From the IMG/VR virus record IMGVR_UViG_3300032053_000011, positions 73,515 to 137,514 of that record: a stretch of 64,000 nt of DNA; one strand, 5' to 3'. The stretch is from a virus. The notes below the pieces were generated by a model. That model did no database searches. It saw only the letters and a program-made list of their open reading frames with translations, and had not been told where the DNA came from. This document shows, piece by piece, positions 46,984 through 62,769 of this stretch. How positions within the stretch are numbered: the stretch's first letter is position 1; each line of letters opens with the position of its first letter. A program made the translations under genes and the position numbers.

Positions 46984-48732
46984 ATGCCCCCATCACTCTT
47001 CGGCAAGAGCACGCCCGCGCCGCTTCGTCGCACCGTCCGTCCCGCGGGTCAGGTCGAGACCCCGCGCGAGACGCTGAAACGAAAGCTTGGCGGGGTCGAG
47101 GTGCCGCTAGAGATGAGCGATGACGAGGTCAGTCGTCTGCTCGCGAATGATGACGCCCGCGCCGCGTGGCTGGCCGCCCGGACCTCGGGGCCTGCGGTGG
47201 CTCGGCAGACTCTGATGCTCCGGCTCGATGTCCACGACCTCCCGCCGGAACTCAGCGATGCCGATGTGACTGCGCTGCTGGCAATGGATGGCCCGACACG
47301 CACGACGTGGTTCCGCGCCCAGCCCTTTTGCACGCCGCCCGCGGAGGGCTTCGCCTCCGAAGCGCTGCGGCAGGCGTGGGCGGACAGTCATCGCTGGTGC
47401 CCGCCTCCCGCCCTCAGCACTGTCCGGGCACCCGGCGGCGCGCCTCTCATGGAAGTGCCGGATCTGCTCTCTCCCGGTGACGCGAACCGCGTCCTCGCCA
47501 ACAGCAACGTCACCTTCTCGTGGAAGACGGTTCGCGGCGCAGCGAGTTACGAGGTGCGGGTCTGCACCGACGCCGCCATGACCCAGGGATGCCTGCCCGG
47601 TGGCGCGGCACAGATCACAGGCCTGAACACGACCTTCGCTGTTCCCGCGGGCGACTACTTCTGGAACGTGCGCGCCATCGGCGCTGACGGCACCGTGGGG
47701 CCGGTCTCCGCGACACGCCATCTGGCGTCGGCCGCGCCTGCCGCCTCACCAAGCCTCGCGGCTCCCACCCTCGCAGGGCCGACCGATGCGGCTCTCGTCG
47801 TCGCGAATGGAACCGTGGCGTTCTCCTGGAATTCCGTGGCGAATGCAACCGGCTACGAGGTCCAGGTCTGCACGGATGCCGCCATGACCCAGGGGTGTTT
47901 GCAGAGCGGCAACGGTCGGACGGCAGCGCCGGACGCGACGATGCTTCTCTTCGCGGTGCCCGCAGGCGATTACTTCTGGCGCGTGCGCGCGATCGCCGCC
48001 GACGGCACGCTCGGTCCGGCATCGGAAGTCCGCCATCTCGCGTCGGCCGCGCCGTCCGCGACGACGACGACCCCGCCCGGGCAACCCCTGCCACCGCCGA
48101 CGCTGATTGCGCCTGCGGACATGACACATGCAGATCCCGACACCCTCGTGACCTTCTCTTGGGCGCTCGTGCCCGGTGCCGCAGGCCATGAATTGGTGGT
48201 CTGTACCGATCCCGGCATGACGGTCGGTTGCCTAACCGGACAGGGACGTCTGCCTGCGCCGCAGAGCACGCTCACCGTGAGTATTCCAGCGGGAACCTAC
48301 TACTGGACTGTGCGCGGCATCGCCGAAGATGGCACCGTCGGTCACTCCGCTGGAGTGCGTCGGTTGCTCGGCGCGTCCGTGGCAGCACCGTTTCAGACGT
48401 CGGTGGAAGCCTTGACCTCGGCGCCAGCGCCGACGACGCCCGCGGCGCCACAGGTGGCGGCGAAGGCCTCGGCAGTGCCATGGATCCTCGGCGCTGCCGC
48501 GCTGGCGGGCGCTGCATGGTGGCTCTGGCCGAAGAGTGATGGCCCGGGTCCGCATTCGAACCCGTCGCATTCGTTCATCGGCAGTCGGGTGACCAAGCTT
48601 GGACGGGGCGCCGGGCGCCGCGGCACGATCCTCTCGCTCGAGGGGTCCGGCCCAATGATGAACGCGACTGTCCGCTGGGAAGACGGCTCGGTGGGGACTG
48701 CCCACGGGAAAGATCTCGGACTGGTCGGCTGA
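46984..48732 (+). CDS. Putative virion membrane protein: three FnIII/Ig-like repeats, a TM anchor and a terminal SH3-like domain
   Basis: Three copies of V.FSW..V.(G/N)A..(Y/H)E..VCTD..MT.GCL...PAG.Y.W.VR; PWILGAAALAGAAWWLW; PAGQ near the N-terminus. Confidence 0.7.
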   Translation: MPPSLFGKSTPAPLRRTVRPAGQVETPRETLKRKLGGVEVPLEMSDDEVSRLLANDDARAAWLAARTSGPAVARQTLMLRLDVHDLPPELSDADVTALLAMDGPTRTTWFRAQPFCTPPAEGFASEALRQAWADSHRWCPPPALSTVRAPGGAPLMEVPDLLSPGDANRVLANSNVTFSWKTVRGAASYEVRVCTDAAMTQGCLPGGAAQITGLNTTFAVPAGDYFWNVRAIGADGTVGPVSATRHLASAAPAASPSLAAPTLAGPTDAALVVANGTVAFSWNSVANATGYEVQVCTDAAMTQGCLQSGNGRTAAPDATMLLFAVPAGDYFWRVRAIAADGTLGPASEVRHLASAAPSATTTTPPGQPLPPPTLIAPADMTHADPDTLVTFSWALVPGAAGHELVVCTDPGMTVGCLTGQGRLPAPQSTLTVSIPAGTYYWTVRGIAEDGTVGHSAGVRRLLGASVAAPFQTSVEALTSAPAPTTPAAPQVAAKASAVPWILGAAALAGAAWWLWPKSDGPGPHSNPSHSFIGSRVTKLGRGAGRRGTILSLEGSGPMMNATVRWEDGSVGTAHGKDLGLVG

Positions 48733-48795
48733 GGCAAGAGTCGCGCAATCTGCGTGAAAGTTGACCGTTCTGCGGTGTCGCCAGACGATGGGCGC

Positions 48796-50445
48796 ATGGA
48801 ACCCTGCAAGCCCTGTGGGCGCGGTCGCCTCTTTCCTTCGACCGCGGGGACCTCGCCAGCGGGCATCTTGGCTCCGGGACTTGGAAACAGGGCCGGTATC
48901 GTATTCCCTGGTCAGAAGAGACTCGGACCACAGCCGTCGGGACAGATCGTCAGCCGCCGTGAGCAACTGCGGGCCAGCCTGAACGTCACCGATCTGCCCG
49001 AGCAGAACAAGGACAACGGCCGAGGCGTCGTCTTCAACGATGCCCATGTGCAATGGCTGCTCGTGATGCCGCTCGATCAGCGACGCGCGCAGTTTCTCCA
49101 CGACTGGTGCACCCTGCCCGACGCAGGGTTCATCAACGAGGCCGCCCGAGCAGCCTGGGCGCGAAGCCATGTCTGGTGTGAAGCCCCGGCGAGCGACACC
49201 GTGCGCGATGTCTCGCGCGCTGCCCTCAAGCTGATGCTCGGATTCGGCAATCAGAAGCTTCCGTCGGAGCTGTCGGATGCCATGGCGCGCGAGCTGATCG
49301 TGATGGGCCGTGATGCAGCAGCCCTGGAATTCCAGCGTCGATTCTGTGTGACGCCCCCGGGCGGATTCGCGACCGATGCGGACATGGCCGCCTGGATGAC
49401 GGACCATGATTGGTGCACCGTTCCCGCGATCCGGGACGCGCGGCCCGGCGCACCCACGCCGTTGAGCGAAGCCGATCAGTACCTGCATACGATGGGGATG
49501 GGGTGTCCGGCCTGGGCGCGAATCACCGACGCAGCCGCTCGGACGCTTCGGCTCCGTTCGTCGAATCCCGATCTCTCTCCCGAGGAAGCCGACCGTCGGC
49601 GCCGGGTCATCGATGCGCAGTGCGGCATCGTCTCCACGCGAGCGGCGTTCGTGGGCGCGACAACGCTTCTGCCCTCGAGCACGAGCACTTTCACTCTGGT
49701 CGGTGGTGGTGGTGCCAAAGGGGGAACTCCAGCAGCTTCGCCGCCACGGACCGGGCCGTTGCCAGCCCCGGTCTTGGGCAACCCGCTTGCGGGCGTCCCT
49801 GTGGTGGCGGATGCCGACGTGTCCTTCAACTGGGCAGCGGTGGATGGAGCGCAGAACTACGAGTTCCGTCTGTGTCTCGATGCCGATCTCCAGCTCGGGT
49901 GCATCACGGGAACAGGTGGCGGCATGATGCTCACTGGCCTCTCGCTCACAATGCGAGTGCCAGCCGGTTCCTACTTCTGGTCCGTGCGCGCTACGGGCAG
50001 CGACGGAACGCCTGGAATTCTTGCCGAAGCGCGTGCTCTTCGGTCTGTGCAGGCCACGACCCAAGTACCGATTCCGGTGCAAACACCGGCGACGCTCCTG
50101 GCGAGCCTCGGCCTGACATGCGACGAGTGGAGCGCACTCACCGCCGATGACCAGGGCACTCGGCTCGCTCTTCTCATTCCGCCATCACGTTCTGGCGATC
50201 CATCAGAAGCCCCGAGAGCGAACCCGATCCCGGCGCAGATCGCCGCCATCAACGTCTACTGCCAGAACCAGTCCATGCTCGATGGCAGAGGCACAAATCA
50301 AGACGCTATACTCCGCCAGACGATGGCACCGCCTGCCGTCGTGCGCAGTAGCCCACTGGTCCCCGTGCTTCTCGTTGCAGGCGCGGTGGGCGTCGTCGGC
50401 CTCGGCTGGTGGATGTTGCGCGATCCGACCCCGGCGCATCGGTAG
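48796..50445 (+). CDS. Putative virion membrane protein (mosaic of Cys-paired modules, one FnIII-like repeat, C-terminal TM)
   Basis: Shares modules with the 46984, 51792 and 58212 ORFs; PSGQ at 48934-48945. Confidence 0.7.
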   Translation: MEPCKPCGRGRLFPSTAGTSPAGILAPGLGNRAGIVFPGQKRLGPQPSGQIVSRREQLRASLNVTDLPEQNKDNGRGVVFNDAHVQWLLVMPLDQRRAQFLHDWCTLPDAGFINEAARAAWARSHVWCEAPASDTVRDVSRAALKLMLGFGNQKLPSELSDAMARELIVMGRDAAALEFQRRFCVTPPGGFATDADMAAWMTDHDWCTVPAIRDARPGAPTPLSEADQYLHTMGMGCPAWARITDAAARTLRLRSSNPDLSPEEADRRRRVIDAQCGIVSTRAAFVGATTLLPSSTSTFTLVGGGGAKGGTPAASPPRTGPLPAPVLGNPLAGVPVVADADVSFNWAAVDGAQNYEFRLCLDADLQLGCITGTGGGMMLTGLSLTMRVPAGSYFWSVRATGSDGTPGILAEARALRSVQATTQVPIPVQTPATLLASLGLTCDEWSALTADDQGTRLALLIPPSRSGDPSEAPRANPIPAQIAAINVYCQNQSMLDGRGTNQDAILRQTMAPPAVVRSSPLVPVLLVAGAVGVVGLGWWMLRDPTPAHR

Positions 50446-50450
50446 GTCCG

Positions 50451-51038
50451 ATGATCCGGTGGCAGACTCCTGCGGAACTCCAGGACGCATACGACGTACT
50501 GCCGCGGCTTTCGCCGGACATCGCGACGCGTCTACTCGACCCGTACTCGAAGCCCTATCGGATCCCGGACACCACCCAGGCGGATGATCGCCTGCGCATG
50601 CAGGACATTCTCGTCCACATCACGATGCAGCAGCCCATCATTCAGGGGCTGGCAGCCACCATCGGGGAGGGGTTGAACACCGAGACTGAGCGCGCGATGG
50701 CAGTGCTCAACTACGTGCAGCATCTCGGCTACATCCCGGATCCGCCGGGCGAGTGGTACCAGAGCGGTCTCTACACGATCGCCAGTCGTGGGAGGGCAGG
50801 CAACTGCAACGATCTTGGCGTCGTGGCGGTGGCTCTGCTGCGCTTGCTGGGCATCGAGGCTTGGGTCTGGTGGATCTTCCAGAAAGGGGCCGCCCTCAAT
50901 CACATGACCGTGCGTGCCAGCGTCGACGGTCGGATGCGATGGGTGGAAACCACAATCGTCGACGCACGGCTCGGCGAGAACCCCTATCGCGCCGCGGAAC
51001 GAACAGGTCAGCAAGCGAACGTGGGCATCACCGCATAG
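50451..51038 (+). CDS. Transglutaminase-like cysteine enzyme (candidate maturation protease)
   Basis: YIPDP.GEWYQ...GNCNDL...ALL...GI...NHM...WVETT: Cys-His-Glu arrangement of the transglutaminase-like fold. Confidence 0.75.
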   Translation: MIRWQTPAELQDAYDVLPRLSPDIATRLLDPYSKPYRIPDTTQADDRLRMQDILVHITMQQPIIQGLAATIGEGLNTETERAMAVLNYVQHLGYIPDPPGEWYQSGLYTIASRGRAGNCNDLGVVAVALLRLLGIEAWVWWIFQKGAALNHMTVRASVDGRMRWVETTIVDARLGENPYRAAERTGQQANVGITA

Positions 51039-51051
51039 CTGCGCCAGTGCG

Positions 51052-51070
51052 CCTGCACGAAAATAGACAG
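51052..51070 (+). promoter_or_regulatory. Conserved 19-mer CCTGCACGAAAATAGACAG (candidate late promoter element)
   Basis: Identical intergenic copies at 62674-62692 and 63905-63923. Confidence 0.65.
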
Positions 51071-51125
51071 CGAAGAGTTCTCGGCCGAGAGTTGACATCC
51101 AGACTCCAACCACGAGGACGATCGC

Positions 51126-51338
51126 ATGTACGCAACGACGACTGCACCCGCTGGCTACTCGAGCCGCATCGGTTCCAGCTCCATGGTCCAGGCCTCGGGA
51201 CAGGCCGTCACCGCGACGCCTGCCGTCGATCTGACGCCCCACCAGATGCAGGTGCGATCCGACCTCGTGTCGTACTTCGCGCTCGGCGGCGCCATCCTCG
51301 GCCTCGCCATCGGCATCATGAACCGCCACCAGGGCTAG
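51126..51338 (+). CDS. Small membrane peptide, copy 1 of 3
   Basis: ASGQ...LTPHQMQVRSDLVSYFALGGAILGLAIGIMNR; GAGG RBS. Confidence 0.8.
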   Translation: MYATTTAPAGYSSRIGSSSMVQASGQAVTATPAVDLTPHQMQVRSDLVSYFALGGAILGLAIGIMNRHQG

Positions 51339-51419
51339 TTCATCGCGCTCGCCTATCGAGCGCCTCGCACGCCTTCTGTTTCCCACAGGCTCTCAAACGA
51401 TCGATTGACGGAGACGAAA

Positions 51420-51701
51420 ATGCCCGACGCGACCACGACTGACACGACCACGACCGAACCCCTCAACCTCCGCGGCTCCGAGTACGCGGCGCTCGCCGTC
51501 GGCACCGTTGTCGCTGGCGCGTTCGGCGCCGTCCTCGGCCATGCCATCGGCGACGCCATCAAGAGCATGAAGGACCGCAAGGCCCTCGGTGCCGGGGCGC
51601 ACGACAACCCCTACGAGAATCCGCGCTACCACTACACCCGTGGTGGCCAGGGTCACTACGGCTACCGTCCGGCGGGCGATCGTCCCGGCGGCCGTCGCTA
51701 G
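51420..51701 (+). CDS. Small membrane protein with an NP-containing basic tail
   Basis: Gly-zipper TM; HDNPYENP; GGAG RBS. Confidence 0.7.
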   Translation: MPDATTTDTTTTEPLNLRGSEYAALAVGTVVAGAFGAVLGHAIGDAIKSMKDRKALGAGAHDNPYENPRYHYTRGGQGHYGYRPAGDRPGGRR

Positions 51702-51791
51702 TCGTTCCGTCCCGTCGGTCCGTTCCAACGAGGATGCCTTTCGCGTGACGTGCCCGTCCGTTGAGTAGGCACGTCCACGCGGAGGCATCTC

Positions 51792-53864
51792 ATGGCAGCG
51801 GTCTGGCAGCTCATTCACATCCGCGCACGCGTTGACGGTGACCGTGCCACCGTGGACCCGAACGGATCCTGGGATATCCTGCATTGGGCGGATGTCGAGC
51901 TCGCGCGTGCATGGATCCGGCAGGCCTCTGCCGCGATCGATCCGCAGCGAGTCCGCGATGCAGACGCTGGTGGTCATGCCGCACAGGTTGCGCTGCTCGT
52001 AGCCGTCACCTTCGCGATCGCCAACGCCTACAACGCCATGAACATCCTGTGGGAGAACGACCCGCTCGCACGCATGCGATACCGGGCGTCCCTCTCCGGG
52101 CCCCCCGCGAGTAGCAGCAGCGAATACTCCGCCTACGACAACTATGGCGGCGGGCATTGGTACCGGGCCAACGAGAGCTTCCCGACAGCCGGTGGCATTC
52201 GTTTGTTGGATGGCGAGCAGGTGCACGCCGAGGACTTCACCGGCAGCATTCCAATGCTGGCGCGTCAGATCTTCCTCCAGGACTACCCTCTCGGACGCCG
52301 TGTGGCGGAGATGCATCCCAGCGAGTTCCGGCAATCAGTCGGTGTCTACGTGGACTCGCAGGGCCGCCTGGACGCCCAGGGACGGCCCGCAGACGTATTC
52401 GAAGACGTCCGTACCTCGAGGAATCGGATCAACCGGCCCTTCGTGATGGGCGATCTGCCGCAAGAGATTCTCCCCGGAACTGATCCGAGCACTGGACGCG
52501 GGAGCAACGCCCCTCTGTCCCCCGAGAATTGGTGCCGTACCAATCGAGACTTCGAATGTCCGAGGTGGATCAGCCCGGCTGCATTCATGGGATTCGTCAC
52601 CGGTGTCGTCACGAGCGGCGGAGGTGTCCTTTGTGGACCCGCGCCGCCAAGGCGCGCCGATGAAACGGCAGTCGACACGGCCTGGGGCGCCATCCAGCGA
52701 TCTGTCACGATGCACGCGAATTGCGCGAACCTCGACTGGCATTACGGAATGTTCGTGGAGGCGCTCCGCATCACCACGCATCTGGCACTCGTCATCACCG
52801 ACGACCTCAATCCGTTCGTTCCATTGCCGGTCTGGGCGCCGCTGCGCGCCTATCTGCCGTGGCTCCAGGCATGGATCGGAGATCTCGAGAGTCGGTCGCC
52901 TGAACAGATCATCGTGGACAGCCGCAAGTTCGTGATTCAGCAGAATCTGCATTGGATCCAGAACGCAGGCGGTCCCGATGCATTCTATCGACAGCTCCTC
53001 GCCGGGCAGGAGAATCGCGCGGCAGACCAGGGTGCCGCCGATCCGAATGTGCAGATGGCCGCTGCGGCCGTCGGTGCCATTGGCGCCGCTCTCGCAGGAG
53101 CGACGTACGGCATCTCCGCTGTTGCGGGCGCCGTGATCGGTGCGGGTCTCACGATCTGGGACGCGTCACGGACGCATGACGTCGCGCCCGATGGCAACTT
53201 CAAGGACGACCTCGGTCGGTACAAACCATCGTTCGCGCTCGGCTGGCTTGGCGGACTCGGACCAGGATTTCCCGGCGAGGAAGGTCACCCTGATAACGCT
53301 CGCCTTCCGATCCCTGACCCGCCAGGATTCCAACGCGGCGGTCGGCCTACCGTGCAGGGTCCGAATGCCGGGCAGACCTACCTGAGCGACCTTGGAATGG
53401 GCTGCGATGCCTGGGCGCGAATCAGCGATCCGGCCGCGCGAACGATCCGACTCCGGTCGGCCTCGGTGAACCGTGGCATCGATCCGGCGGAAGGCGATCG
53501 CCGCCGAGTCCTCGTCGATGCGTATTGCGCCAGTCAGGGCGCCCAAGTCAGAGGAGCCGTGAATCCGCCGGTCCTGAACATAATGGCTGTCCTGACGTCG
53601 ACGACCCCTGGCAAGGGCGTCACGGAGACCGCGACGCAGACATTGACCTCGACGCCAGCAGCGCCCCCATCGACAACGACGCCAGCGACATCAACGACGC
53701 CTGCGTTGGAGATCCTGCCAGCGCACAACGAGGTCGTGCAACTGACCGAGATCGTGCCCGCACCGCGCAAGGTATGGCCGTGGGTCGTCGGTGGTGTCGT
53801 GGTCCTTGGTGCAGGCGCAGGCGGCTACTGGTGGCTGCATCGCGACAAGCGACCGCACCAGTGA
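51792..53864 (+). CDS. Large putative virion protein with a Gly/Ala hydrophobic hairpin and C-terminal TM
   Basis: AAAAVGAIGAALAGATYGISAVAGAVIGAGLTIW; MGC.AWARI module; WPWVVGG...YWWLHRDKR; GGAGG RBS. Confidence 0.75.
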   Translation: MAAVWQLIHIRARVDGDRATVDPNGSWDILHWADVELARAWIRQASAAIDPQRVRDADAGGHAAQVALLVAVTFAIANAYNAMNILWENDPLARMRYRASLSGPPASSSSEYSAYDNYGGGHWYRANESFPTAGGIRLLDGEQVHAEDFTGSIPMLARQIFLQDYPLGRRVAEMHPSEFRQSVGVYVDSQGRLDAQGRPADVFEDVRTSRNRINRPFVMGDLPQEILPGTDPSTGRGSNAPLSPENWCRTNRDFECPRWISPAAFMGFVTGVVTSGGGVLCGPAPPRRADETAVDTAWGAIQRSVTMHANCANLDWHYGMFVEALRITTHLALVITDDLNPFVPLPVWAPLRAYLPWLQAWIGDLESRSPEQIIVDSRKFVIQQNLHWIQNAGGPDAFYRQLLAGQENRAADQGAADPNVQMAAAAVGAIGAALAGATYGISAVAGAVIGAGLTIWDASRTHDVAPDGNFKDDLGRYKPSFALGWLGGLGPGFPGEEGHPDNARLPIPDPPGFQRGGRPTVQGPNAGQTYLSDLGMGCDAWARISDPAARTIRLRSASVNRGIDPAEGDRRRVLVDAYCASQGAQVRGAVNPPVLNIMAVLTSTTPGKGVTETATQTLTSTPAAPPSTTTPATSTTPALEILPAHNEVVQLTEIVPAPRKVWPWVVGGVVVLGAGAGGYWWLHRDKRPHQ

Positions 53865-53895
53865 GATAGTGCCTTTTGAGGAGATCAGAGCCCAT

Positions 53896-55398
53896 ATGGT
53901 CAACATGAACTTCGACGCGTATTCCTCGGCCAACATGTGTGGTGCCTGCGGCACGCGTGGGGCATGCAGCGGAGGACGTTGCCCAGGCCCGGAAGCATCT
54001 GGAATTCTTGCGTCGGGAGGCATCAACTGCTGCCCCGGATGCGCCAGCGCGATTGGCTGTGAGGGCGGCGATTGCCCGGGACCCAGCGCATGCTTGCGAG
54101 TGCGCTTCGGGATGCGCGGCAACACGCATGGGAATGTCGGCTGCACCCTTTCGTTGGCAAAGCGCGAGTATTCGCGGGCCAACAACACCTTGCAGGAGCT
54201 GCCTCGCACGCCCGGCCGCGGACGTCTGTTCCCCACGCCGGAGACCAAGCAGTCGCAGCCGCGGCTGCCCGGTCCGCCGGAGGGGAACTTTCCCCTCATT
54301 CCGCCGCCGCCCCCGCCGACGACCGAGCAGCGCTACCCGAATCAGCCGGAGCAGCCGCGTCCGCAGATCATGCAGCCGCGTTCCCCGGCGCCTCCGAAGC
54401 CGCTGGCATTCCAGCCTCTTCCGAGCCAGCCCGGCGCGCCGCAGGGGTCTGTCGCGCAGGCGATGATTCCTCAGCAGCCCGCCGGTCCGGTCGCTCAGGT
54501 CGCGTACGCCGCGCCGCCACCGCCCGCCCCAGTGGACGCCGTGTCGCAGCCCGTCAAGGCGATGCCGTATGCGGAGCCACCGACGCCGGTCACGCCGATG
54601 GCGACCAAGACCTCCGCCCCACTGCCGAGCAAAGGCAGCAGCCCGCTCGGACCGATCACTCACGCCGCAGGAGCTGTCAACATGTATGGAATTCCAGCGG
54701 GCTACGGCCCGAGGCCGTCGGGACAGACGGCGACCGTTCGCGTCACCGTTCCCGCTCCGCCCCGGCCGCCGCCCCCGCCACCTCGGCCGCTGACCGCTGT
54801 CGAAGCGCAAGCCGCCGCGGTCGCAGGTGCCCAGGCAACGGCGACGCGGAACGCGCAGATCGATGCCGATCGACAAGTGGCGCTCGAACGCCAGCACACC
54901 ATCACGAGCATCGCCACCACGGCAGGCGAAGCTCTCGGCACGACGGCCGGTACGATCACGGCGATCGTCGCATCGAGCAATGCGACGGCGCTCGAGCGCC
55001 TCCGCATTCAATCAGCGGAGCGCCTGGAGGCGATGCGACTCGACAATGCCCGGGCAGCGGCGGCGGCGGGTGGAACGATCACCCCTGCGGCCCAGGCTCA
55101 GATGGACGCCGTCGCGACTCTCCAGGCATCTCTGGCGGCGCGATTGGCGGAACTCGCTGCTGCGCCTCCGGCGCCCACCGTCACGCTCACGCAAGGCCTG
55201 ACCGCCGCACCGACCGCCGAAGAGGCTGCCGCTGCCAGGAACAAGACCATGCTCTACGTCGGTCTCGGCGTGGTTGGCGTGGCGGCAGTCGGCGGCGTCG
55301 CCTATCTCGCGCTGCGCAAGAAGGATGAGCCGAAGCACAATCCATCGCTGCCGAGCTACCCGCCCGGCGCATACGCGTCCCAGTACGGGGTCCGCTAG
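53896..55398 (+). CDS. Putative virion membrane protein (Cys-rich leader, Pro/Gln-rich linker, helical module, TM)
   Basis: PSGQ at 54715-54726; TM followed by RKK..HNP. Start is 53896 or 53905. Confidence 0.7.
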   Translation: MVNMNFDAYSSANMCGACGTRGACSGGRCPGPEASGILASGGINCCPGCASAIGCEGGDCPGPSACLRVRFGMRGNTHGNVGCTLSLAKREYSRANNTLQELPRTPGRGRLFPTPETKQSQPRLPGPPEGNFPLIPPPPPPTTEQRYPNQPEQPRPQIMQPRSPAPPKPLAFQPLPSQPGAPQGSVAQAMIPQQPAGPVAQVAYAAPPPPAPVDAVSQPVKAMPYAEPPTPVTPMATKTSAPLPSKGSSPLGPITHAAGAVNMYGIPAGYGPRPSGQTATVRVTVPAPPRPPPPPPRPLTAVEAQAAAVAGAQATATRNAQIDADRQVALERQHTITSIATTAGEALGTTAGTITAIVASSNATALERLRIQSAERLEAMRLDNARAAAAAGGTITPAAQAQMDAVATLQASLAARLAELAAAPPAPTVTLTQGLTAAPTAEEAAAARNKTMLYVGLGVVGVAAVGGVAYLALRKKDEPKHNPSLPSYPPGAYASQYGVR

Positions 55399-55406
55399 AG
55401 CGCCAC

Positions 55407-55958
55407 ATGCCTACGACTGCTGCCGAAGTGACCGCTGCGAGGGAGCGAACCAATACCGCGATCGCAACGGCGGCAGCGGACGCTCTTACTGTCAGCGCAA
55501 ACACGATCGCGGCAGTCATTCAGTCCAACAATTCCCTGGCGATCGGCCGCCTGAACATCCAGGCGGCCGAGGCGCTGCGCCATCTGATGGACGAATCCGC
55601 GCAGGCGACCACGGCGGAAGATGCGCTCGCCATACAGCGAGAAAACCAGCAGCAGATCCAGGCGTTGACCGATCTGATCAATCGGCTTCAAGCGGCCCAT
55701 TCAGAAACGACAGCAGAGCCGATCGTGGCTGCGCCGCCGACAACGACGACCACTACGACGGCAACGCCAGCGTCACCCGCAGTCACGCCCGCAGCCGAGA
55801 AGAGCCACGCCCTGCTTTATGTAGGGCTGGGCATCGCCGGGCTCACGCTGGCGGGCGGCATCGCCTACTTCGCCATGCGGGCCAAACCAGTGGCTCGCAC
55901 GCACCGGAACCCTTGGGATTCCAGCTCAGATGCGCTTGGAGGCGCTGACTCGCAATGA
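55407..55958 (+). CDS. Putative virion membrane protein, paralog of the C-terminal part of 53896..55398
   Basis: TAIATAAADAL...RLNIQAAE matches TSIATTAGEAL...RLRIQSAE; LLYVGLG TM; RNP. Confidence 0.75.
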   Translation: MPTTAAEVTAARERTNTAIATAAADALTVSANTIAAVIQSNNSLAIGRLNIQAAEALRHLMDESAQATTAEDALAIQRENQQQIQALTDLINRLQAAHSETTAEPIVAAPPTTTTTTTATPASPAVTPAAEKSHALLYVGLGIAGLTLAGGIAYFAMRAKPVARTHRNPWDSSSDALGGADSQ

Positions 55959-57184
55959 CGTACCCACAAGCTCCAAACTTCCGTACCAGCACCTTCGGCG
56001 ACGCGTGGTGGCGAGTGGCGCGCAACGGCGTCGCTCAGCTCATCGAAACGGACGGATTGGCGACGACGGTCCAGATCCAGATGATGCTGTTCAATGGCGT
56101 CCCGTCTGGTACTCGAACCTTCGATGGCGTCACGCCTCATCAAGTGCGGATCGATGGCGTCCTCGGACCGGATTCGCTGCGCGCGCTCTGGGCGTACGGC
56201 AAGACGGTCATGGCGGTACCGGCGACGGCTTTCGCACAGATCCAGGCCGACGCCGCAGCGCGGAGAATCACCGCCGAAACGTATCGGATCGCCCTCTGGC
56301 TCGCATACAACCAGCCGAGAAATGTCGATCTGACCGAGGGGCCGACCAATGCCCGTCGCCGTGTGCGTCGGACTGATCCAGCGATTTTGTGGATCCAGAC
56401 GCTGGGCGGCGTCTCGCTCGCTCCGGGTGCGCAACTGCCGCAGTGGCTCGAGCGTCCGGCGATTCCGGTGAACACCAATCAATCGCCAGCGCCCCCGCAG
56501 GTCACAGCGCTCTCTTCGGATGGCACCCGGACCACGGACGTGATGCAGGTCCCCGATGAGCCGACCGCGCCGCCGCCCGCGCAGCCCGCTCAAGCACCGG
56601 CGCTCGTGCCGGAAACGGCGACACCGGTGGGCACGACACCGACGCCTGCACCGGCGACAACGCCGGATACGAATGCGACGCCCGACGACACCAGTGCCAC
56701 ACCAGCAACGCCTCCCGCAGCCGCGAGCTCGACGAACTACGTCCCCTGGATTCTGGGTGGCCTCGCAGTCGCGGCAGCGGTGGGCATCGGGATCGCGGTC
56801 ACGCGCAAGAAAGACGCGCATCCCGCGCTCGGGCCGAGTGGACCGAGTGGACGTCCGGCGCCCGCTGGCATGCCGCCGCACGCAGCACCGCCCCTGCATG
56901 CGAATCCATCCGACGCTCGAGGGTCGACGACCGGCGGTATTCACCAGCAGCACGACGTGCCTCGATGGGTGCTCGAACATGGCATCAGCGATGCCACGCG
57001 GCGCGATCGCATCAATCAGGCGCTCGCGCTCGCCATGAAGATGAACAACCGGAAGGGCGATGCAATCGTCGGCACGATCTGGGAAGGGCTTCTGACCCCT
57101 CCAACCTCGCCAGAATTGCTTCATGATTTTCTCCGCTCGCCGCTCTGGCACAAGTTCGCGAGCCGCGCCGCCACACGGCTGTAG
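55955..57184 (+). CDS. Membrane-anchored protein with a peptidoglycan-binding-like motif (paralog 1)
   Basis: MTYPQAPNFR...AWW; IDGVLGPDSLRALW; Pro/Thr linker; TM followed by RKK. Confidence 0.7.
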   Translation: MTYPQAPNFRTSTFGDAWWRVARNGVAQLIETDGLATTVQIQMMLFNGVPSGTRTFDGVTPHQVRIDGVLGPDSLRALWAYGKTVMAVPATAFAQIQADAAARRITAETYRIALWLAYNQPRNVDLTEGPTNARRRVRRTDPAILWIQTLGGVSLAPGAQLPQWLERPAIPVNTNQSPAPPQVTALSSDGTRTTDVMQVPDEPTAPPPAQPAQAPALVPETATPVGTTPTPAPATTPDTNATPDDTSATPATPPAAASSTNYVPWILGGLAVAAAVGIGIAVTRKKDAHPALGPSGPSGRPAPAGMPPHAAPPLHANPSDARGSTTGGIHQQHDVPRWVLEHGISDATRRDRINQALALAMKMNNRKGDAIVGTIWEGLLTPPTSPELLHDFLRSPLWHKFASRAATRL

Positions 57185-57243
57185 CGCGCGGCGCGGACTG
57201 CGCGAAAGATGACGGCGCTCTAAGCATCTGAGAGCCTTCATCG

Positions 57244-57609
57244 ATGGCATGCAGGTTCCCGACCCCGAGCGGCAACGTCCAGGCTAGCCCGCGCGGACTC
57301 AATCAGTTCGATGTGGAGTTCGTGTCGCGGCTGCTTGCGGGCACCGACGGCCGCGCCTTCACAAGGCCTGACTGGAATCGCGCGGAACAAGCCGCGCACG
57401 CGACTGCGATCGAAGCCGCCCGGCACAAGGCTGCGAACGCGCAGCGCGAAACTGCGCGAACTCCCAATCCGCGTCCCTCTGGTCAGGTCGCTCCCGCGGA
57501 CACGCTCACGCCGCACCAGATGCTGGTCCGGTCCGATCTCATCTCGTATTTCGCCCTCGGCGGCGCTGTTCTCGGCCTCGCCATCGGCGTCGCGAACTGC
57601 CACCGGTAG
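57244..57609 (+). CDS. Small membrane peptide, copy 2 of 3, with a long leader
   Basis: PSGQ...LTPHQMLVRSDLISYFALGGAVLGLAIGVAN. Confidence 0.75.
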   Translation: MACRFPTPSGNVQASPRGLNQFDVEFVSRLLAGTDGRAFTRPDWNRAEQAAHATAIEAARHKAANAQRETARTPNPRPSGQVAPADTLTPHQMLVRSDLISYFALGGAVLGLAIGVANCHR

Positions 57610-57666
57610 TTCCAAGAATCGCTTCGAAACCGTCAACGAATCGCTCACTCGACAAGGATCATCCCC

Positions 57667-57837
57667 ATGCGCAACAACATCTTCCCCAGTGGTCAGTCCA
57701 CCGCCATCACTCCGGCGCCCGCGGCCGAGCTCACGCCGCACCAGATGCAGGTACGATCCGACCTCGTGTCGTACTTCGCGCTCGGCGGCGCCGTGCTCGG
57801 TCTCGCCATCGGCATCATGAATCGCTCCAAGAAGTAG
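57667..57837 (+). CDS. Small membrane peptide, copy 3 of 3 (56 aa, absent from the ORF track)
   Basis: MRNNIFPSGQSTAITPAPAAELTPHQMQVRSDLVSYFALGGAVLGLAIGIMNRSKK; AAGGA RBS. Confidence 0.8.
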   Translation: MRNNIFPSGQSTAITPAPAAELTPHQMQVRSDLVSYFALGGAVLGLAIGIMNRSKK

Positions 57838-58211
57838 GCCGATCGCGTCCGTTCGCTCGCCATCTGAGGCAGGCGTGGCGGACGCGTTGCTCCACTCCAC
57901 CAACAATCTTCATTGGGAGATTCGCGAATGGCTTGACGACGCTCAGCACCGGTGGTCACCGGTACAGCAGCCCCTTCGAATGCTCAGCCCAGCGCGGAGG
58001 ATGCGGCGATTCTCGCGCAGTTCCTCGCGTCGTGTCCGACGTGCGATCCGACAGACGCAGCTCTCGCGCAGTTTGCAGCGTCGCTTCTCGCGACCCAGCC
58101 GCCGAAGAGATAGCCTGTTCCAATCAGCATCTTCGCGGCCACGACCTCGCCACCGCAAACTGCCCCTGCACAAAAGTAGTCGACAGACTCCGCCTCCGAT
58201 ACGGTAACCCC

Positions 58212-59879
58212 ATGTCGGGTTGCACAGGATGCGGCGTATGTTTCCCGGGACAGTCCCTCGGCACCGGAGGGCGCTGCGCAGGCGGCTGTGTGCCCCGGCA
58301 GCCGCAGGCGGCTGACCCGCGCCATCCATTCGCGGAATCACTCGCATTCCAGCGGCAGGAACAAGGCCGTCGCACCCTCATGCTGATGGGCAAGGACTTC
58401 CACGACTGTGCAGCATGGCTCGCACTCAGCGATGCCGACAAACGCATCCAGGTCGCGCGCGGACTGCATGTGCCCGCAGGGTCCAACTTCAGCTACGAGT
58501 TCGCTGTTTCGAGAATCGATGAATACTGCGCTGCAAATGCGCCGGAAGGAAGTGTCGCGATGGCTTCAGGAGCGCTGTTTGGCAAGCCGCAGGCGAGTGG
58601 GATGGCTCTTCCGGGTGGCGCGCGTCCCGCGTTCCCGCTCGGGCCATCGGGCATGACTCTTCCGGGAGGCGCCCGTCCGGGCTTCCCGCTCGGGCCGTCG
58701 GGTATGGCTCTTCCGGGTGGCGCGCGTCCCGCGTTTCCGCTCGGGCCGTCCGGCCAGATCAACCCCGGCATCGCCGCCGCGGAAGCGGAGGCTCGTGCAC
58801 GCGGCGGCCGTGCGCTCCTGCTCATCGGCCTGGACTGCCTCACGTGGTCGCGCATGCCCTTCGACAACAAGGTCGAAGCGCTGCGTCGCGGCCTGCGTAC
58901 GCCTCCGGTCACGCGCCTGGACTTCGATCGTGCCATCAACGAGATGGACGCGTACTGCACGTCGATGGGCTTCCCGCCGCCCGTCAGGGCCACGGGCTTT
59001 GCCGCTGCCACCGAGTACAAGAGCCCGCTCCGCTCGGGAGGGTCGGCCATCACGGGGCTCTTCGGGAAGAATGCCGGGACATTCCAGCAGAAGACCAGCG
59101 CCTCGGGCCAGTTGACCGCGAGCGCCAACACGCTCACCGATCAGGGTCGTGCCCTGGATGTGGCGATGCACGCCGCTCTCGCGCGCAACGACTATGCGAC
59201 GTACGAGCGGTTGTGGAAGCAGGCGTCACAGCTCACCCAGGCCGCGCGGATCGCCAGGATGGATGCATTCTCGCGACCGGGCATGGGACTCGCAGACCCG
59301 CAGAGCCTCCGCGCTTCGGGACAGATCGACATCGCGCCGATGTCGATCGTCGGCGGCCTGAGCGCTGCTTCGTGGAACGGCCTCTCGGACGTCGATCGCC
59401 TCACCTACCTGCTCAACAACGCGCAAACCACCGCGCTGCTCGAAGAGACTCGCAACATCGGTCTCGAGCAGGGATACCGAGGCATCACCGAGGCGGTCAA
59501 CGCCGCCGAGGCCGCGATGGGTCTGGATCGCGTGGCTGCATCGGGCACGGCTGGGGGCTGGGAGAATCAGGCTCGCGAACTGGTGCATGCCTCGGGACAG
59601 ACGGCTGTCACCGAGTCCGCTCCCGGGGCCACCAACATCACCGCGACGCCCGCCGCCGCCACGCCCGTTGTCGCTGCGAAGATGACGGTGTCGCCATGGG
59701 TCGTCGCCGGACTCGGCGCTGCGGTGATCGCAGGAGTGGTGATCTACCGCAAGTCTTCCAAGGAAGAGCCCGCGCACGGCCCCTATGGCGTGCGTGGTGG
59801 CGAGAACGAGTCACATCGCGGCGGGTCGAACCTGCCGAACCCCTCGGGCCAGTCTCCGTACTATCCCGTCGCGCGCTGA
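58212..59879 (+). CDS. Putative virion polyprotein with multiple [P/A]SG junctions and a C-terminal TM
   Basis: Cys-rich leader; ASG-M, 2x PSG-M, PSGQ, 3x ASGQ, and a further PSGQ after the TM. Confidence 0.7.
   Translation: MSGCTGCGVCFPGQSLGTGGRCAGGCVPRQPQAADPRHPFAESLAFQRQEQGRRTLMLMGKDFHDCAAWLALSDADKRIQVARGLHVPAGSNFSYEFAVSRIDEYCAANAPEGSVAMASGALFGKPQASGMALPGGARPAFPLGPSGMTLPGGARPGFPLGPSGMALPGGARPAFPLGPSGQINPGIAAAEAEARARGGRALLLIGLDCLTWSRMPFDNKVEALRRGLRTPPVTRLDFDRAINEMDAYCTSMGFPPPVRATGFAAATEYKSPLRSGGSAITGLFGKNAGTFQQKTSASGQLTASANTLTDQGRALDVAMHAALARNDYATYERLWKQASQLTQAARIARMDAFSRPGMGLADPQSLRASGQIDIAPMSIVGGLSAASWNGLSDVDRLTYLLNNAQTTALLEETRNIGLEQGYRGITEAVNAAEAAMGLDRVAASGTAGGWENQARELVHASGQTAVTESAPGATNITATPAAATPVVAAKMTVSPWVVAGLGAAVIAGVVIYRKSSKEEPAHGPYGVRGGENESHRGGSNLPNPSGQSPYYPVAR
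58602..58754 (+). repeat. 3 x 51-bp in-frame tandem repeat (M[A/T]LPGGARP[A/G]FPLGPSG)
   Basis: Directly visible, with synonymous differences between units. Confidence 0.9.
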
Positions 59880-59946
59880 GGAAACTCGCGCCTCGCTGAG
59901 AGTCGTCTCTTCTCGATCAACGCCGTCCCGCACAACGAGGTCCACC

Positions 59947-60900
59947 GTGGCATTCCCGAGCAACGCTCCGAACTACAACTCCGCCACCGCAATGTCCGCA
60001 TGGTGGGTCGAACGCGGCGCCTCCGAGCAGTCCGTGGTCGCGACGACCGGCAATGCGTTCGTCAAGCGGCTCCAGAACCAGCTCACGGAGTACTTCCTGG
60101 CGCTGTCACGCAACGCACCCGTGATCGGCGCGCTCAATCCGAACGAGCATGCCTACGGCGGCGGACGCGGTGATGTTGCCGAGATCCGCTTCGACTGGCA
60201 CGCCATCGGCAACGATGCCAACTGGGGACCGGTGACCAATGCCGCCCTCTGGCGCTGGGTTGAAAACCAGCGCGCGAGCACCGTCGGAGACGATGCTCTG
60301 CATGGTCTCCAGTTCCATCTCGATCAGATCGAGCTGACCGTGAAGGATGGACGGATCAACTTCGAGACCCTCAAGGCCGCGATCTGGGCCGCACGCCATT
60401 CGACGATCGGCTTCGCCGCCGCGATGGGTAAGATCGAACTCGCCACCGCGTCGATGCTGAATCAGATCACGCCGCCGCCGTGGCGCCATGTTGCGCCCGC
60501 GCCTGCCGCCGCCGAGCTCGGGAAGTTCTACACGTGGAACCCCGACACGACGCCGGTCGCGACGCCTCTCTCGCAGGGCGGCGGATCTCCGGCGATCACG
60601 ACGACCACGCCGAGCACTCCCGCCGCACAGGGACAGGGAGTCACGATGACGCCCGCGGTGAGCACCGCAGGCACTGACCAGGACATCAAGCTCGAAGATC
60701 GCACCATGGGCCTGACGCGCAATCAATGGTTGCTCGGCGGCGCCATTCTTCTGGGTGTGGCCGGAGTGGCCTACTACACCAAGGACAAGAAGGATGGTCA
60801 CCCCGGCCATCCCGGCGGGCCGGGAGGTGGACCGGGTGGGCCGCCCGGACACGGCTACGGTCCTTCTCCCCATTCTCCCAGCCACGCGGCGCGGCGGTAG
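59947..60900 (+). CDS. Membrane-anchored protein with a peptidoglycan-binding-like motif (paralog 2)
   Basis: GTG start with GAGG; APNY...SAWW; DANWGPVTNAALW; TM followed by a Gly/His/Pro tail. Confidence 0.7.
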   Translation: MAFPSNAPNYNSATAMSAWWVERGASEQSVVATTGNAFVKRLQNQLTEYFLALSRNAPVIGALNPNEHAYGGGRGDVAEIRFDWHAIGNDANWGPVTNAALWRWVENQRASTVGDDALHGLQFHLDQIELTVKDGRINFETLKAAIWAARHSTIGFAAAMGKIELATASMLNQITPPPWRHVAPAPAAAELGKFYTWNPDTTPVATPLSQGGGSPAITTTTPSTPAAQGQGVTMTPAVSTAGTDQDIKLEDRTMGLTRNQWLLGGAILLGVAGVAYYTKDKKDGHPGHPGGPGGGPGGPPGHGYGPSPHSPSHAARR

Positions 60901-60909
60901 GAGACCACG

Positions 60910-61671
60910 ATGACGTACCCGGCAGCACCGAACTTCCGCCTCGGCGATCCAGGCTCCGCATGGTGGGTCGTGCAGACCCCCGAGGGTCCGCGCGTCACCA
61001 TCACGCAGTGGGATGTCGTCCTGCGCATGTTCCAGGACAAGGCAAAGAACCACTTCCTGCCTGCGATCTACGGCCGTTCGAACAGCGGAAGCTGTCCGCG
61101 GACGACATCGCGTGTCTGGGGCGATGTGTGGGGCGTGCTGTCGGCCAATGCGCGCTCGCGATCCGACATCGCGGTCGATGGCCTGTGGCACGACGACACC
61201 GCCGACATTCTCTGGGCGCTGCTCTGCATGACGCATCAGACGACGCGCGCCGAAGAATGGGCGTTGGCAGCGAACGAGCGCTCGATCACGCACGAGGCTG
61301 TGCGGCAGATCATCTGGTTCGCGTTCTACGTGGACGCGGTGGATCCTGATCCGCAGGCGCCAGCGCCATGGCATTCGTCGGTGGACGGCACCACTCTGGT
61401 GTTGCCGGACAACGCGGTATTGCCTCTGTGGCAGTCGGCGCCGCAGAGTCTGCGCGAAGACAGCACGTGGTCCGGGACCTTCCGGCCGGGTGTCGATCCG
61501 ATGCCGATGTCGCCGAGTCAGGCGGCTGCCGCAGCGCGTCCTCCGGTGACGATTCAGCCGGTCACGACGCCGATGCGCGTGTCAGTGCCGATGACGCTGG
61601 GAATTCTTGCTCTCCTCGCCGCCGGTGCATGGGTTCTGTCCGCTCCTTCCTCGCCGGGCGCTCACCGCTAA
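60910..61671 (+). CDS. Membrane-anchored protein with a peptidoglycan-binding-like motif (paralog 3)
   Basis: MTYPAAPNFR...SAWW; VDGLWHDDTADILW; C-terminal TM; AGGAG RBS. Confidence 0.7.
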   Translation: MTYPAAPNFRLGDPGSAWWVVQTPEGPRVTITQWDVVLRMFQDKAKNHFLPAIYGRSNSGSCPRTTSRVWGDVWGVLSANARSRSDIAVDGLWHDDTADILWALLCMTHQTTRAEEWALAANERSITHEAVRQIIWFAFYVDAVDPDPQAPAPWHSSVDGTTLVLPDNAVLPLWQSAPQSLREDSTWSGTFRPGVDPMPMSPSQAAAAARPPVTIQPVTTPMRVSVPMTLGILALLAAGAWVLSAPSSPGAHR

Positions 61672-61676
61672 CACCC

Positions 61677-62636
61677 ATGGCGAAGCGTCGCGCGCCACAC
61701 TGCAAGCCCGCCGATATCCGCGCTGCCGCGGAGGCGTACCGGGCCTTGCACGATGGCATCGAACCCACGGAGATCGAGTGCCGTGCGTGGGACGTGCGCA
61801 AGCCGCGCTTCGAGGTGGAGCTCGGGCCGATGCCTGAGAACCGCTACATCAAGAAGCACGTCGAGGAAAATGAGCCGCGGAAAGACGTCTACCGGCACAT
61901 CAACTTCGAAGAACTCCAGAAGACCGATCCCGCACTCGCCGAAGAGTACATGCCCGTTCTGGTCCACAACGACCGGGGCGAAATGCGCATCGAGCAATCC
62001 CATCGCGGACGCAATTACACCGTGACCTCTCACGGCATCGAGGACATTCCCATGCACGACAACGACGGTGACGGTTACGGCATGTACGGCATCCGACGGA
62101 ACGCATCGCCCTACGCGGCCCCAGCAGAAGCTGCGGCCGAACAAAGGCGACAGGCCGAGATGCTCGGTCAGCCGGGATACGGCGGCGGCTATCGGCCCCC
62201 CGCGCCGACCACGCAGGGGGCCCGGTCATTCTTCACGGACATGGCGATCATCGGCGGCTGGGCCGGTGGCGCGACCATCCTCGGCGCGATGGCGATGCGC
62301 GACACGCGCATGTCGCATCCGATGAAGGCGACTCTCACAGGAGTGGTTGCGACGGGCACCGGCCTCGCCGTCAATCAGAAGGCTCCTCGAATCGCGATCG
62401 GTCTCGCCGCAGGTGGCGTGGCGAACCTGCTCCAGGCGCTGTTCGAAACGATGATCGCCGAGCCTGTCCCGGCGCCTGCCCCATTGCAGACGTCTGCGCA
62501 GCAGCTCGTGGCTGCGCCTGCGATCTCGGCGCCGCTCCCCGCTCAAGCACCGGTGCAACTCAATGCACCGCCTGCGATCGCACCCGCGGGACACGTGAGC
62601 AGGCAGGGCATCAACCTCATGATGCGAGGCCGCTGA
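61677..62636 (+). CDS. Putative structural protein: soluble N-terminal domain plus 2-3 Gly-rich TM segments
   Basis: Starts MAKRRAPH; hydrophobic segments in the C-terminal half; PAGH near the end. Confidence 0.65.
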   Translation: MAKRRAPHCKPADIRAAAEAYRALHDGIEPTEIECRAWDVRKPRFEVELGPMPENRYIKKHVEENEPRKDVYRHINFEELQKTDPALAEEYMPVLVHNDRGEMRIEQSHRGRNYTVTSHGIEDIPMHDNDGDGYGMYGIRRNASPYAAPAEAAAEQRRQAEMLGQPGYGGGYRPPAPTTQGARSFFTDMAIIGGWAGGATILGAMAMRDTRMSHPMKATLTGVVATGTGLAVNQKAPRIAIGLAAGGVANLLQALFETMIAEPVPAPAPLQTSAQQLVAAPAISAPLPAQAPVQLNAPPAIAPAGHVSRQGINLMMRGR

Positions 62637-62661
62637 ACAGGCGACGTCCAGAGATGCGGCA

Positions 62662-62769
62662 CGTGTAGAAGCCCCTGCACGAAAATAGACAGGCGCAGAG
62701 GCTCAGGGCACAACCGACAAAACGGCCCACTTCAATCGCGGCCAACCACCCGTCCAAGAGGAAATCCAC
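62662..62769 (+). repeat. 108-bp direct repeat, copy 1 (promoter, leader and RBS of the 62771 gene)
   Basis: Identical to 63893-64000. Confidence 0.92.

Follow-up and report, generated by a model that had tools for sequence, protein, structure and literature searches.

The window analysed here comprises the last 64 kb of a 137,514-bp contig (IMG/VR virus record IMGVR_UViG_3300032053_000011) and contains a block of 15 open reading frames (ORFs), all on one strand (positions 46984–62636 of the window, 5210 residues in total), whose products carry a recurrent four-residue motif. This motif is real and non-random, depends on the order of its residues, is specific to the block and is kept at the protein level. 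In its core form, [P/A]-[S/A]-G-Q, it is a selected short linear signal, located in linkers at module junctions and at the boundaries between N-terminal leaders and conserved cores. A transglutaminase-fold cysteine enzyme is encoded within the same block, and it is possible that the motif is a site at which this enzyme processes the proteins during particle assembly. All window features described below lie on the + strand.

Enrichment of the motif in the block

Fifteen [PA][SA]G[QM] sites were found in the block. Eight of them lie in the product of 58212–59879 (ASGM at 58593, PSGM at 58644 and 58695, PSGQ at 58746, ASGQ at 59100, 59313 and 59589, and PSGQ at 59841), and the other seven are PAGQ at 47041, PSGQ at 48934, ASGQ at 51192, PSGQ at 54715, PAGM at 56861, and PSGQ at 57475 and 57685. 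An earlier sequence-only reading of this DNA had named all of these apart from the PAGM at 56861, and every one of its sites was recovered. When each protein was shuffled separately, 1.55 ± 1.16 sites were expected in the block and the maximum was 5, so that none of 300 shuffles reached 15, whereas the remaining 68 ORFs of the window (14,814 residues) contained 4 sites against 1.97 expected, a number reached in 38 of 300 shuffles. The enrichment over both the rest of the DNA and shuffled sequences that had been proposed is thus borne out. The narrower form [PA]SGQ occurred 10 times in the block and not at all in the 187 other ORFs of the contig (39,195 residues; Fisher p = 4.9e-10). Plain SGQ was found 10 times in the block and 6 times elsewhere on the contig, with P or A as the preceding residue in 10/10 block copies and 0/6 of those outside.

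Since the pattern had been picked after being seen, an unbiased scan of tripeptides was also run, in which SGQ came out on top of all 8000 (10 observed against 1.21 expected; Poisson 6e-7, approximately 0.005 after correction). Shuffling inside local windows of 8–30 residues left the expectation at 1.3–1.4, with 0 of 400 shuffles reaching 15, and linker composition is therefore not the cause of the enrichment. In each of the remaining five arrangements, S, G and Q occurred only 0–3 times in the block. Codons were found to differ among the copies, as had been claimed before, with TCG, TCT, TCC and AGT in use for Ser and GGA, GGC, GGT and GGG for Gly.

Part of the count reflects common descent. 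Because the products of 46984 and 48754 and those of three small genes are paralogous, and because the copies of a tandem repeat are not independent, the 15 sites reduce to approximately 8 independent ones, where approximately 0.8–1 would be expected, which still amounts to a roughly tenfold excess. Module duplication and shuffling could have left the motif behind as a functionless remnant of a common ancestral linker, and this is how one might read the reduction itself, together with the paralogy of 46984 and 48754, of 48754 and 51792, of 55955 and 60910 and of the three small proteins, as well as the tandem repeat. We nevertheless consider such an evolutionary by-product very unlikely, since the flanks are dissimilar beyond the four residues, the motif survives down to 33–38% identity, the codons differ between copies and the excess persists among the independent sites.

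Placement of the motif at module junctions

The motif is set in Pro/Gly/Ser-rich linkers, and the residue that follows the Gln is mostly V, I, T, A, L or S. Its placement is most easily seen in the three small membrane proteins, which have a 45-residue core in common. In the first of these (51126–51338, 70 residues, transmembrane (TM) segment at residues 47–65), the ASGQ at 51192 opens the conserved core; in the second (57244–57609, 121 residues), the PSGQ at 57475 follows a 78-residue leader; and in the third (57667–57837, 56 residues), the PSGQ at 57685 follows a leader of 7 residues. The S, G and Q are invariant in all three and constitute the first alignable positions, while the leaders (23, 78 and 7 residues, several start codons and hence leader lengths being uncertain) do not align, in keeping with the suggestion of the sequence-only reading that the motif separates unrelated leaders from conserved cores. 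Similarly, the motifs of the paralogues 46984 and 48754 (E 9e-24) align with each other, near the start of the similarity between the two proteins. The former (46984–48732) is a 582-residue protein with three putative immunoglobulin (Ig)-like repeats and a C-terminal hydrophobic anchor, in which the PAGQ at 47041 falls at residue 20, and the latter (48754–50445) has 563 residues, a C-terminal TM anchor (residues 529–547) and its PSGQ (48934) at residue 61.

The product of 58212–59879 is a modular, polyprotein-like, TM-anchored protein of 555 residues when read from the ATG at 58212, whereas the gene call in the database uses the GTG at 58290. Its sites lie between modules that can be recognised, namely a repeated Cys...Trp...Cys helical module, a Pro/Gly repeat, a helical segment, a 'WN..L...YLLNNA' domain and the anchor. 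The gene includes a 51-nucleotide (17-residue) tandem repeat (58602–58754; Tandem Repeats Finder, 83% matches, score 236) present in 3.0 copies, which carry SGM, SGM and SGQ. This repeat had been described as ending exactly at SG; the repeat itself is real, but its end is uninformative, the phase of a repeat being arbitrary. The sites that are kept in homologues are all N-terminal to the TM anchor. Two sites are C-terminal to a TM segment, the PAGM at 56861 and the PSGQ at 59841, and the latter is lost in the closest homologue of the 58212 product described below.

Known types of site were compared with the motif and rejected. A Sec, Tat or lipoprotein signal-peptidase site does not fit, as an N-terminal hydrophobic segment is found in none of the motif-bearing proteins, whose leaders are polar or Pro-rich. 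Phosphorylation or glycosylation of the Ser is contradicted by the replacement of Ser by Ala in the PAGQ at 47041 and in both sites of the homologue P0022, and a prepilin-type G|F/M site by the absence of a hydrophobic helix after the motif.

Conservation of the motif in homologues

A word-based search retrieved a metagenomic homologue of the 58212 product with 69% identity, P0013, which keeps the three internal ASGQ sites (59100, 59313 and 59589). Its counterparts of the three SGM copies read SGP, SGG and SGG, the PSGQ at the end of the repeat has become PSGA and the C-terminal PSGQ has become PGGY. Because none of the Met variants is kept as Q or M in P0013, they are probably not functional sites. 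Of the alternatives Q and M in the pattern as first described, Q is the one retained in distant homologues.

Three such distant relatives, P0022 (279 residues), P0023 (238 residues) and P0024 (206 residues), were found with a full profile search. P0022 and P0024 consist of C-terminal modules only and are 33–38% identical to the window's protein, while P0023 is the helical module alone and carries no motif; in other words, pieces that the motif bounds in the 58212 product exist as separate shorter proteins in relatives. At the membrane-proximal site, G and Q are invariant across four sequences despite the low identity, and [AS]GQ is located 12–20 residues upstream of the conserved 'WN..L' domain in 4/4 sequences. 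P0024 contains three [PA]SGQ within its 206 residues. In the one family sampled, P0022 and P0024 have accordingly kept [SA]GQ at the junctions, and the pattern of retained proteins with a lost motif was not what was seen. These alignments suggest a core motif of [PA]-[SA]-G-Q that is under selection at junctions, and the combination of conservation at junctions with modules occurring as separate proteins constitutes the strongest support for a function of the motif.

A transglutaminase-fold enzyme encoded in the block

As judged by profile, alignment and structural model, the 195-residue product of 50451–51038 is a genuine transglutaminase-fold Cys-His-Glu protein, in line with its initial recognition as a transglutaminase-like gene. 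PF01841 (Transglut_core) matched residues 81–169 of the 209-residue ORF with 35.0 bits (cut-off 23; E 1.9e-08) and was also present in six of the seven homologues retrieved, P0021 having none on record. The putative triad consists of Cys119 (nucleotide 50805), His151 (50901) and Glu166 (50946). The Cys and His are invariant in the eight sequences of the enzyme alignment (A3), and position 166, assigned as the third member by spacing rather than from coordinates, is E in seven and D in one. Neither a signal peptide nor a TM anchor was seen in the enzyme.

The AlphaFold2 model of the enzyme is of high confidence (predicted local distance difference test (pLDDT) 90.9, predicted template modelling score (pTM) 0.90). 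Its best fold match was 3kd4, a putative protease of unknown function (Z 11.3), followed by TglA (9.3), and eight chains gave Z ≥ 8; Foldseek linked the model to 3kd4 and 3isr with E 3e-4. Cross-linking transglutaminases (factor XIII, Z 9.2; TG3, 8.8; TG2, 8.5) and hydrolases (PeiP, 8.1; LapG, 8.0; PeiW, 7.9; PNGase, 7.5; CPR-C4 protease, 6.5) both appear among the matches, and a search of the PDB by sequence returned no solved structure at E ≤ 1. The neighbours of the enzyme in a protein Atlas, to be taken as leads only, were small viral Transglut_core clusters, one mostly from Preplasmiviricota and others from Uroviricota, and Pei-like archaeal proteins. A Pfam scan covering approximately 177 of the 202 ORF calls on the contig found no other peptidase-fold family, which leaves this enzyme as the only one found.

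Close homologues of the enzyme occur in metagenomes (78–82% identity), and relatives of approximately 40% identity are located in metagenome-assembled genomes (MAGs) of Myxococcota (Polyangiales, Myxococcaceae and others). No relatives were found among viral contigs for the enzyme or the candidate capsid protein (see below) as single proteins, nor for alignments A1 and A4, and none for alignment A1 among genome contigs; tblastn against GenBank phages likewise gave no match to the enzyme or the capsid candidate. In the Myxococcota MAGs, four provirus-like elements (L009 from Polyangiales, L010, L011 and L014) encode a D5-type primase-helicase, a relative of the enzyme and C-terminally anchored proteins. 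These elements also carry a conserved ORF of approximately 310 residues that ends in ...KDSAKEIVAGVLNEMA. In L009, a homologue of the block gene 59785–60900 adjoins the enzyme relative. At the loci of the enzyme relatives, [SAG]G[QM] is scattered only, and no tripeptide is enriched beyond p ~1e-4. Either the specificity of the enzyme differs in the Myxococcota elements, or its job is independent of the motif.

A possible processing signal and its alternatives

Proteolysis was ranked first among the possible functions because of the placement of the motif at leader/core boundaries and module junctions, the occurrence of the modules as products of separate genes in relatives and the presence of an enzyme with a cysteine hydrolase fold. 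We tentatively propose that the motif is a site of site-specific proteolytic processing during particle assembly, a proposal to which we give somewhat less than an even chance. Processing would remove the N-terminal leaders of the small membrane proteins and would cut the 58212 product into modules at the motif. The most likely enzyme would be the co-encoded, apparently cytoplasmic transglutaminase-fold protein, acting through Cys119-His151-Glu166, and the cut could fall either before or after the Gln. Enzyme and motif sites would both be found on the cytoplasmic side of the membrane, since the substrates have no N-terminal signal peptide and the enzyme has neither signal peptide nor anchor. 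Cleavage at the motif, its side, the role of the enzyme and the virion status of the proteins are all matters that we infer, in a mechanism which, like the processing or cross-linking put forward in the sequence-only reading, is plausible. The weakest part of the proposal is the assignment of the motif to this enzyme, for which co-encoding is the evidence. Complex prediction for the enzyme (A3) with residues 25–150 of A4 gave run scores of 0.64, 0.00 and 0.00, and was used neither for nor against binding.

Several observations weigh against this proposal. The motif [PA][SA]G[QM] is absent from the loci of the enzyme relatives in L009, L010, L011 and L014, and in P0013 the Q or M is lost at five of the eight sites (58593, 58644, 58695, 58746 and 59841). 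The contig is probably incomplete, so that another protease could be encoded outside it, and the membrane topology is uncertain on account of basic residues located after the TM helices. Furthermore, the predicted fold matches proteases, cross-linkers and wall hydrolases about equally well and is by itself no basis for choosing among them. Finally, an invariant Gln at P1' is not a usual requirement of a protease that cuts after Gly, and it fits Gln-directed chemistry at least as well.

In that case, the Gln of the motif would act as an acyl donor and become cross-linked to Lys residues of capsid or membrane partners, or it would be deamidated, and the particle would be stabilised. Transglutaminases act on Gln only where it is exposed, and deamidation of Gln is known from several enzymes of the transglutaminase fold. 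Such chemistry accounts better for the invariance of Gln in the conserved sites, and the location of the motif in Pro/Gly/Ser-rich linkers as well as the fold matches to factor XIII, TG3 and TG2 speak for it too. However, most prokaryotic members of the transglutaminase-like superfamily are predicted, and several have been shown, to be hydrolases, which counts against a Gln-directed role. Cutting offers a simpler explanation of the placement at junctions and leaders and of the modules that occur as separate proteins, no conserved acceptor Lys was identified, and relatives of the enzyme exist without the motif. On balance, we regard Gln-directed modification as unlikely.

The existence of such relatives in elements lacking the motif would also be consistent with a motif that is not a substrate at all. 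It could be a non-covalent docking or turn motif, recognised for instance by the capsid protein, an assembly chaperone or a membrane-insertion route, with the enzyme serving a separate purpose, such as that of a wall endopeptidase in the virion or during lysis. P0013, which has lost five of its eight sites yet keeps the protein, agrees with this, and so do the similarity of the enzyme fold to that of PeiP (Z 8.1) and PeiW (Z 7.9), both pseudomurein endoisopeptidases, and the nearest structural clusters in the Atlas, which include Pei-like and small viral Transglut_core proteins. Wall lysis is, however, covered at least partly by an SLT transglycosylase domain elsewhere on the contig, and no partner is known here for a four-residue docking motif whose G-Q is invariant exactly where the conserved cores begin. 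We consider the docking explanation improbable.

Relation to known systems

For proteolysis, the parallel with the poxvirus I7 (AG|X), African swine fever virus (ASFV) pS273R (GG|X) and adenain proteases, drawn already in the sequence-only reading, holds as a functional analogy but not as a relationship of clan. These proteases cut after small residues or Gly in several structural or membrane proteins, and their cuts include the removal of terminal pieces from membrane proteins, comparable with what is proposed here. Adenain, I7 and pS273R are Ulp1-like members of clan CE, in which the His precedes the Cys. The enzyme in the window was rejected as a clan CE maturation protease, as PF01841 was its only Pfam match (E ≤ 0.01) and Cys119 precedes His151; it differs from them in fold and clan, being papain/transglutaminase-like, and in belonging to a virus of a bacterial host. 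According to a review, the maturation protease of the jelly-roll lineage was acquired in eukaryotes and was absent from the PRD1-like ancestor (PMC6260650).

A closer precedent in fold is LapG, of the BTLCP family, which has the same fold as the model of our enzyme (Z 8.0, root-mean-square deviation 3.4 over 116 residues) and a Cys-His-acid triad. The likeness is one of fold only, as no BTLCP profile was among the Pfam hits of the enzyme at E ≤ 0.01. The LapG cut site in LapA falls between Ala108 and Ala109, so that the N-terminus of the cleaved protein reads AGPSAAGTGG (PMC3032545). LapG provides a precedent for a site-specific processing protease with a small-residue cut site and a membrane- or surface-associated substrate. 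In contrast to the enzyme described here, which is apparently cytoplasmic and has many candidate substrates, LapG is periplasmic, depends on calcium and has a single adhesin as substrate, and the A-A cut site in LapA differs from the G-Q motif.

Factor XIII, TG2 and TG3 resemble the enzyme in core fold (Z 8.5–9.2) and triad, and the substrate Gln on which they depend absolutely has its counterpart in the invariant Gln of the motif. Another cross-linking transglutaminase is the Bacillus spore-coat Tgl. Unlike the cross-linking transglutaminases, in which beta-sandwich and barrel domains flank the core, the enzyme here has a single domain of 195 residues. Methanogen viruses also encode transglutaminase-fold enzymes, PeiW and PeiP, and Pei-like proteins are among the Atlas neighbours of our enzyme. 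PeiW and PeiP differ from it in that the enzyme here, from a virus of a bacterial host, lacks pseudomurein-binding repeats and a Peptidase_C71 match, and in that the Pei enzymes target the cell wall and not viral proteins.

Tailed phages and eukaryotic large DNA viruses offer familiar examples of virion maturation by a protease with a consensus site. To our knowledge, a dedicated maturation protease has not been described for bacterial membrane-containing tailless viruses. The word 'protease' does not occur in the text of a 2018 survey of prokaryotic double jelly-roll virus genomes (PMC5894146). Among the papers listed by a literature search, none was relevant to a transglutaminase-like enzyme in phage virions or tectiviruses, or to jelly-roll viruses of Myxococcota. 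The window might hold the first maturation system to be described for a prokaryotic non-tailed, membrane-containing virus of the jelly-roll type. At the P/A-S-G-Q signal, a transglutaminase-fold enzyme would act on a dozen tail-anchored virion membrane proteins, among them a polyprotein-like precursor, either processing them or cross-linking them through Gln. Such a system would be independent of the Ulp1-like proteases known from eukaryotic jelly-roll viruses and would be found in a genome of at least 137 kb, possibly approximately 247 kb, far above known members of the class. We hold this combined claim to be doubtful. If true, it would add a new substrate logic (G-Q) for transglutaminase-fold enzymes. 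A conserved four-residue signal beside a candidate enzyme offers a testable handle on how the membrane proteome of such a virus is assembled, and even without the link to the enzyme, the motif marks domain boundaries in proteins that otherwise lack annotated relatives.

Other proteins of the block

The block probably belongs to the late or structural genes of an uncultured large virus infecting Myxococcota-like hosts. Its C-terminal TM anchors and the neighbouring capsid-like gene, with its weak jelly-roll assignment, are the reasons for considering it the structural module of a membrane-containing virus, and that its products are virion membrane proteins of such a virus is a reasonable supposition rather than a result. 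A hydropathy scan with a 19-residue window detected a hydrophobic segment within the final 45 residues in eight of the 15 block ORFs, compared with two of the 68 other ORFs of the window. A frequent pattern at the C-termini of the block proteins is a TM helix rich in Gly, Ala and Val, followed by R or K and then by a P-x-H or N-P tail, for example ...RKKDEPKHNP, ...RKSSKEEPAH and ...RDPTPAHR; the tails of 46984, 51792 and 59785 were judged by eye. A similar end is present in the distant relative P0024. A known C-terminal sorting domain was rejected as an explanation for the common anchors, the best NCBIfam match being CoaP_CTERM with 14.9 bits against a cut-off of 35.

Apart from the enzyme, the block gave only sub-threshold matches in Pfam, PHROGs and NCBIfam, namely Ig-like for 46984, which was weak and under the Pfam cut-offs (Pfam and PHROGs), and FlxA-like for 55407. 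The products of 48754 and 51792 have a module in common, 'GMGC..AWARI.D.AART.RLRS', with 52% identity over 66 residues. The product of 53791–55398 is a Pro-rich protein of 535 residues with a C-terminal TM anchor (residues 490–508) and the PSGQ (54715) at residue 309. A further paralogue family, characterised by 'TYP.APNF..AWW', comprises the 409-residue product of 55955–57184, in which the PAGM at 56861 is C-terminal to the TM segment, and the products of 59785–60900 and 60910–61671; 55955 and 60910 also have an N-terminal domain in common. Cys-rich stretches of the CxxCG type were noted in the N-terminal leaders of 48754 (48790–48830), 53791 (53930–54100) and 58212 (58212–58290), the last of which would be left out of the 58212 product by a start at the GTG at 58290. 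A CSGCGCGMGGCGCG stretch is present in P0024.

Candidate capsid protein and genomic setting

The block is closed by a gene for a candidate major capsid protein of 330 residues (62771–63763), which has the strongest codon bias in the window (GC content at third codon positions (GC3) 0.90) and 11 metagenomic homologues with 35–79% identity. The structural model, predicted with low confidence (pLDDT 56.7), is rich in beta structure and comes closest in fold to the single jelly-roll capsid proteins of the membrane-containing viruses Sulfolobus polyhedral virus 1 (SPV1, Z 5.5) and Haloarcula hispanica icosahedral virus 2 (HHIV-2, Z 5.1). The predicted jelly-roll assignment is weak, as Z scores of 5.1–5.5 are in the range of common arrangements. 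A Foldseek search against viral models returned nothing at E ≤ 0.001, and the nearest named families in the Atlas (PRD1 P3 and PM2 P2) scored 0.75–0.77, which is the level of chance.

A metagenome scan gave three loci with homologues of this gene, one starting inside the homologue (L001) and two on 3-kb contigs with a different upstream gene order (L002 and L003). Being too short, or rearranged upstream, to show the block, they have no bearing on the co-occurrence of motif and enzyme. The capsid homologue is followed in these loci by a gene for approximately 175–183 residues (L001:1030–1557, L003:2141–2689 and L002:2846–3178; 30% identity, E 3e-15, two related contigs), which could encode a second capsid protein; the contig of the window ends before reaching this gene. 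Upstream of the capsid homologue, ORFs on the minus strand (L002:1072–1734 and L003:310–792) contain an ...AAGL(V/L)DG.G... stretch reminiscent of a LAGLIDADG homing endonuclease.

The GC content is approximately 64%. The contig encodes proteins for replication and recombination (DnaB-type helicases, RecT and YqaJ), phage-typical domains (T5orf172, GP88 and L5 gp82), an RNase II-type nuclease with a double-stranded RNA-binding motif, a Ser/Thr kinase and a peptide deformylase. Terminase, portal, HK97-type capsid and prohead protease were not among the Pfam hits of the contig, a weak negative given that the contig is probably incomplete. A protein collection records the window's own proteins P0012 and P0014 and gives 247,125 bp as the length of their longest contig; the virus genome is therefore probably larger than the 137,514-bp contig, at approximately twice that length.

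A direct repeat of 111 nucleotides (99% identity) is present directly upstream of the start of the capsid candidate (62659–62769) and at the end of the contig (63890–64000), and a 19-nucleotide piece of it recurs at approximately 51052–51070, upstream of the small protein gene 51126. The copies may act as a common late promoter or leader, and the assembly probably broke off at the contig end because of this repeat. Approximately 2 kb upstream of the block, on the same strand and with two ORFs in between, lies the gene for the Ser/Thr protein kinase (43355–44929; Pkinase, E 7e-44), whose product has a TM segment at residues 365–383.

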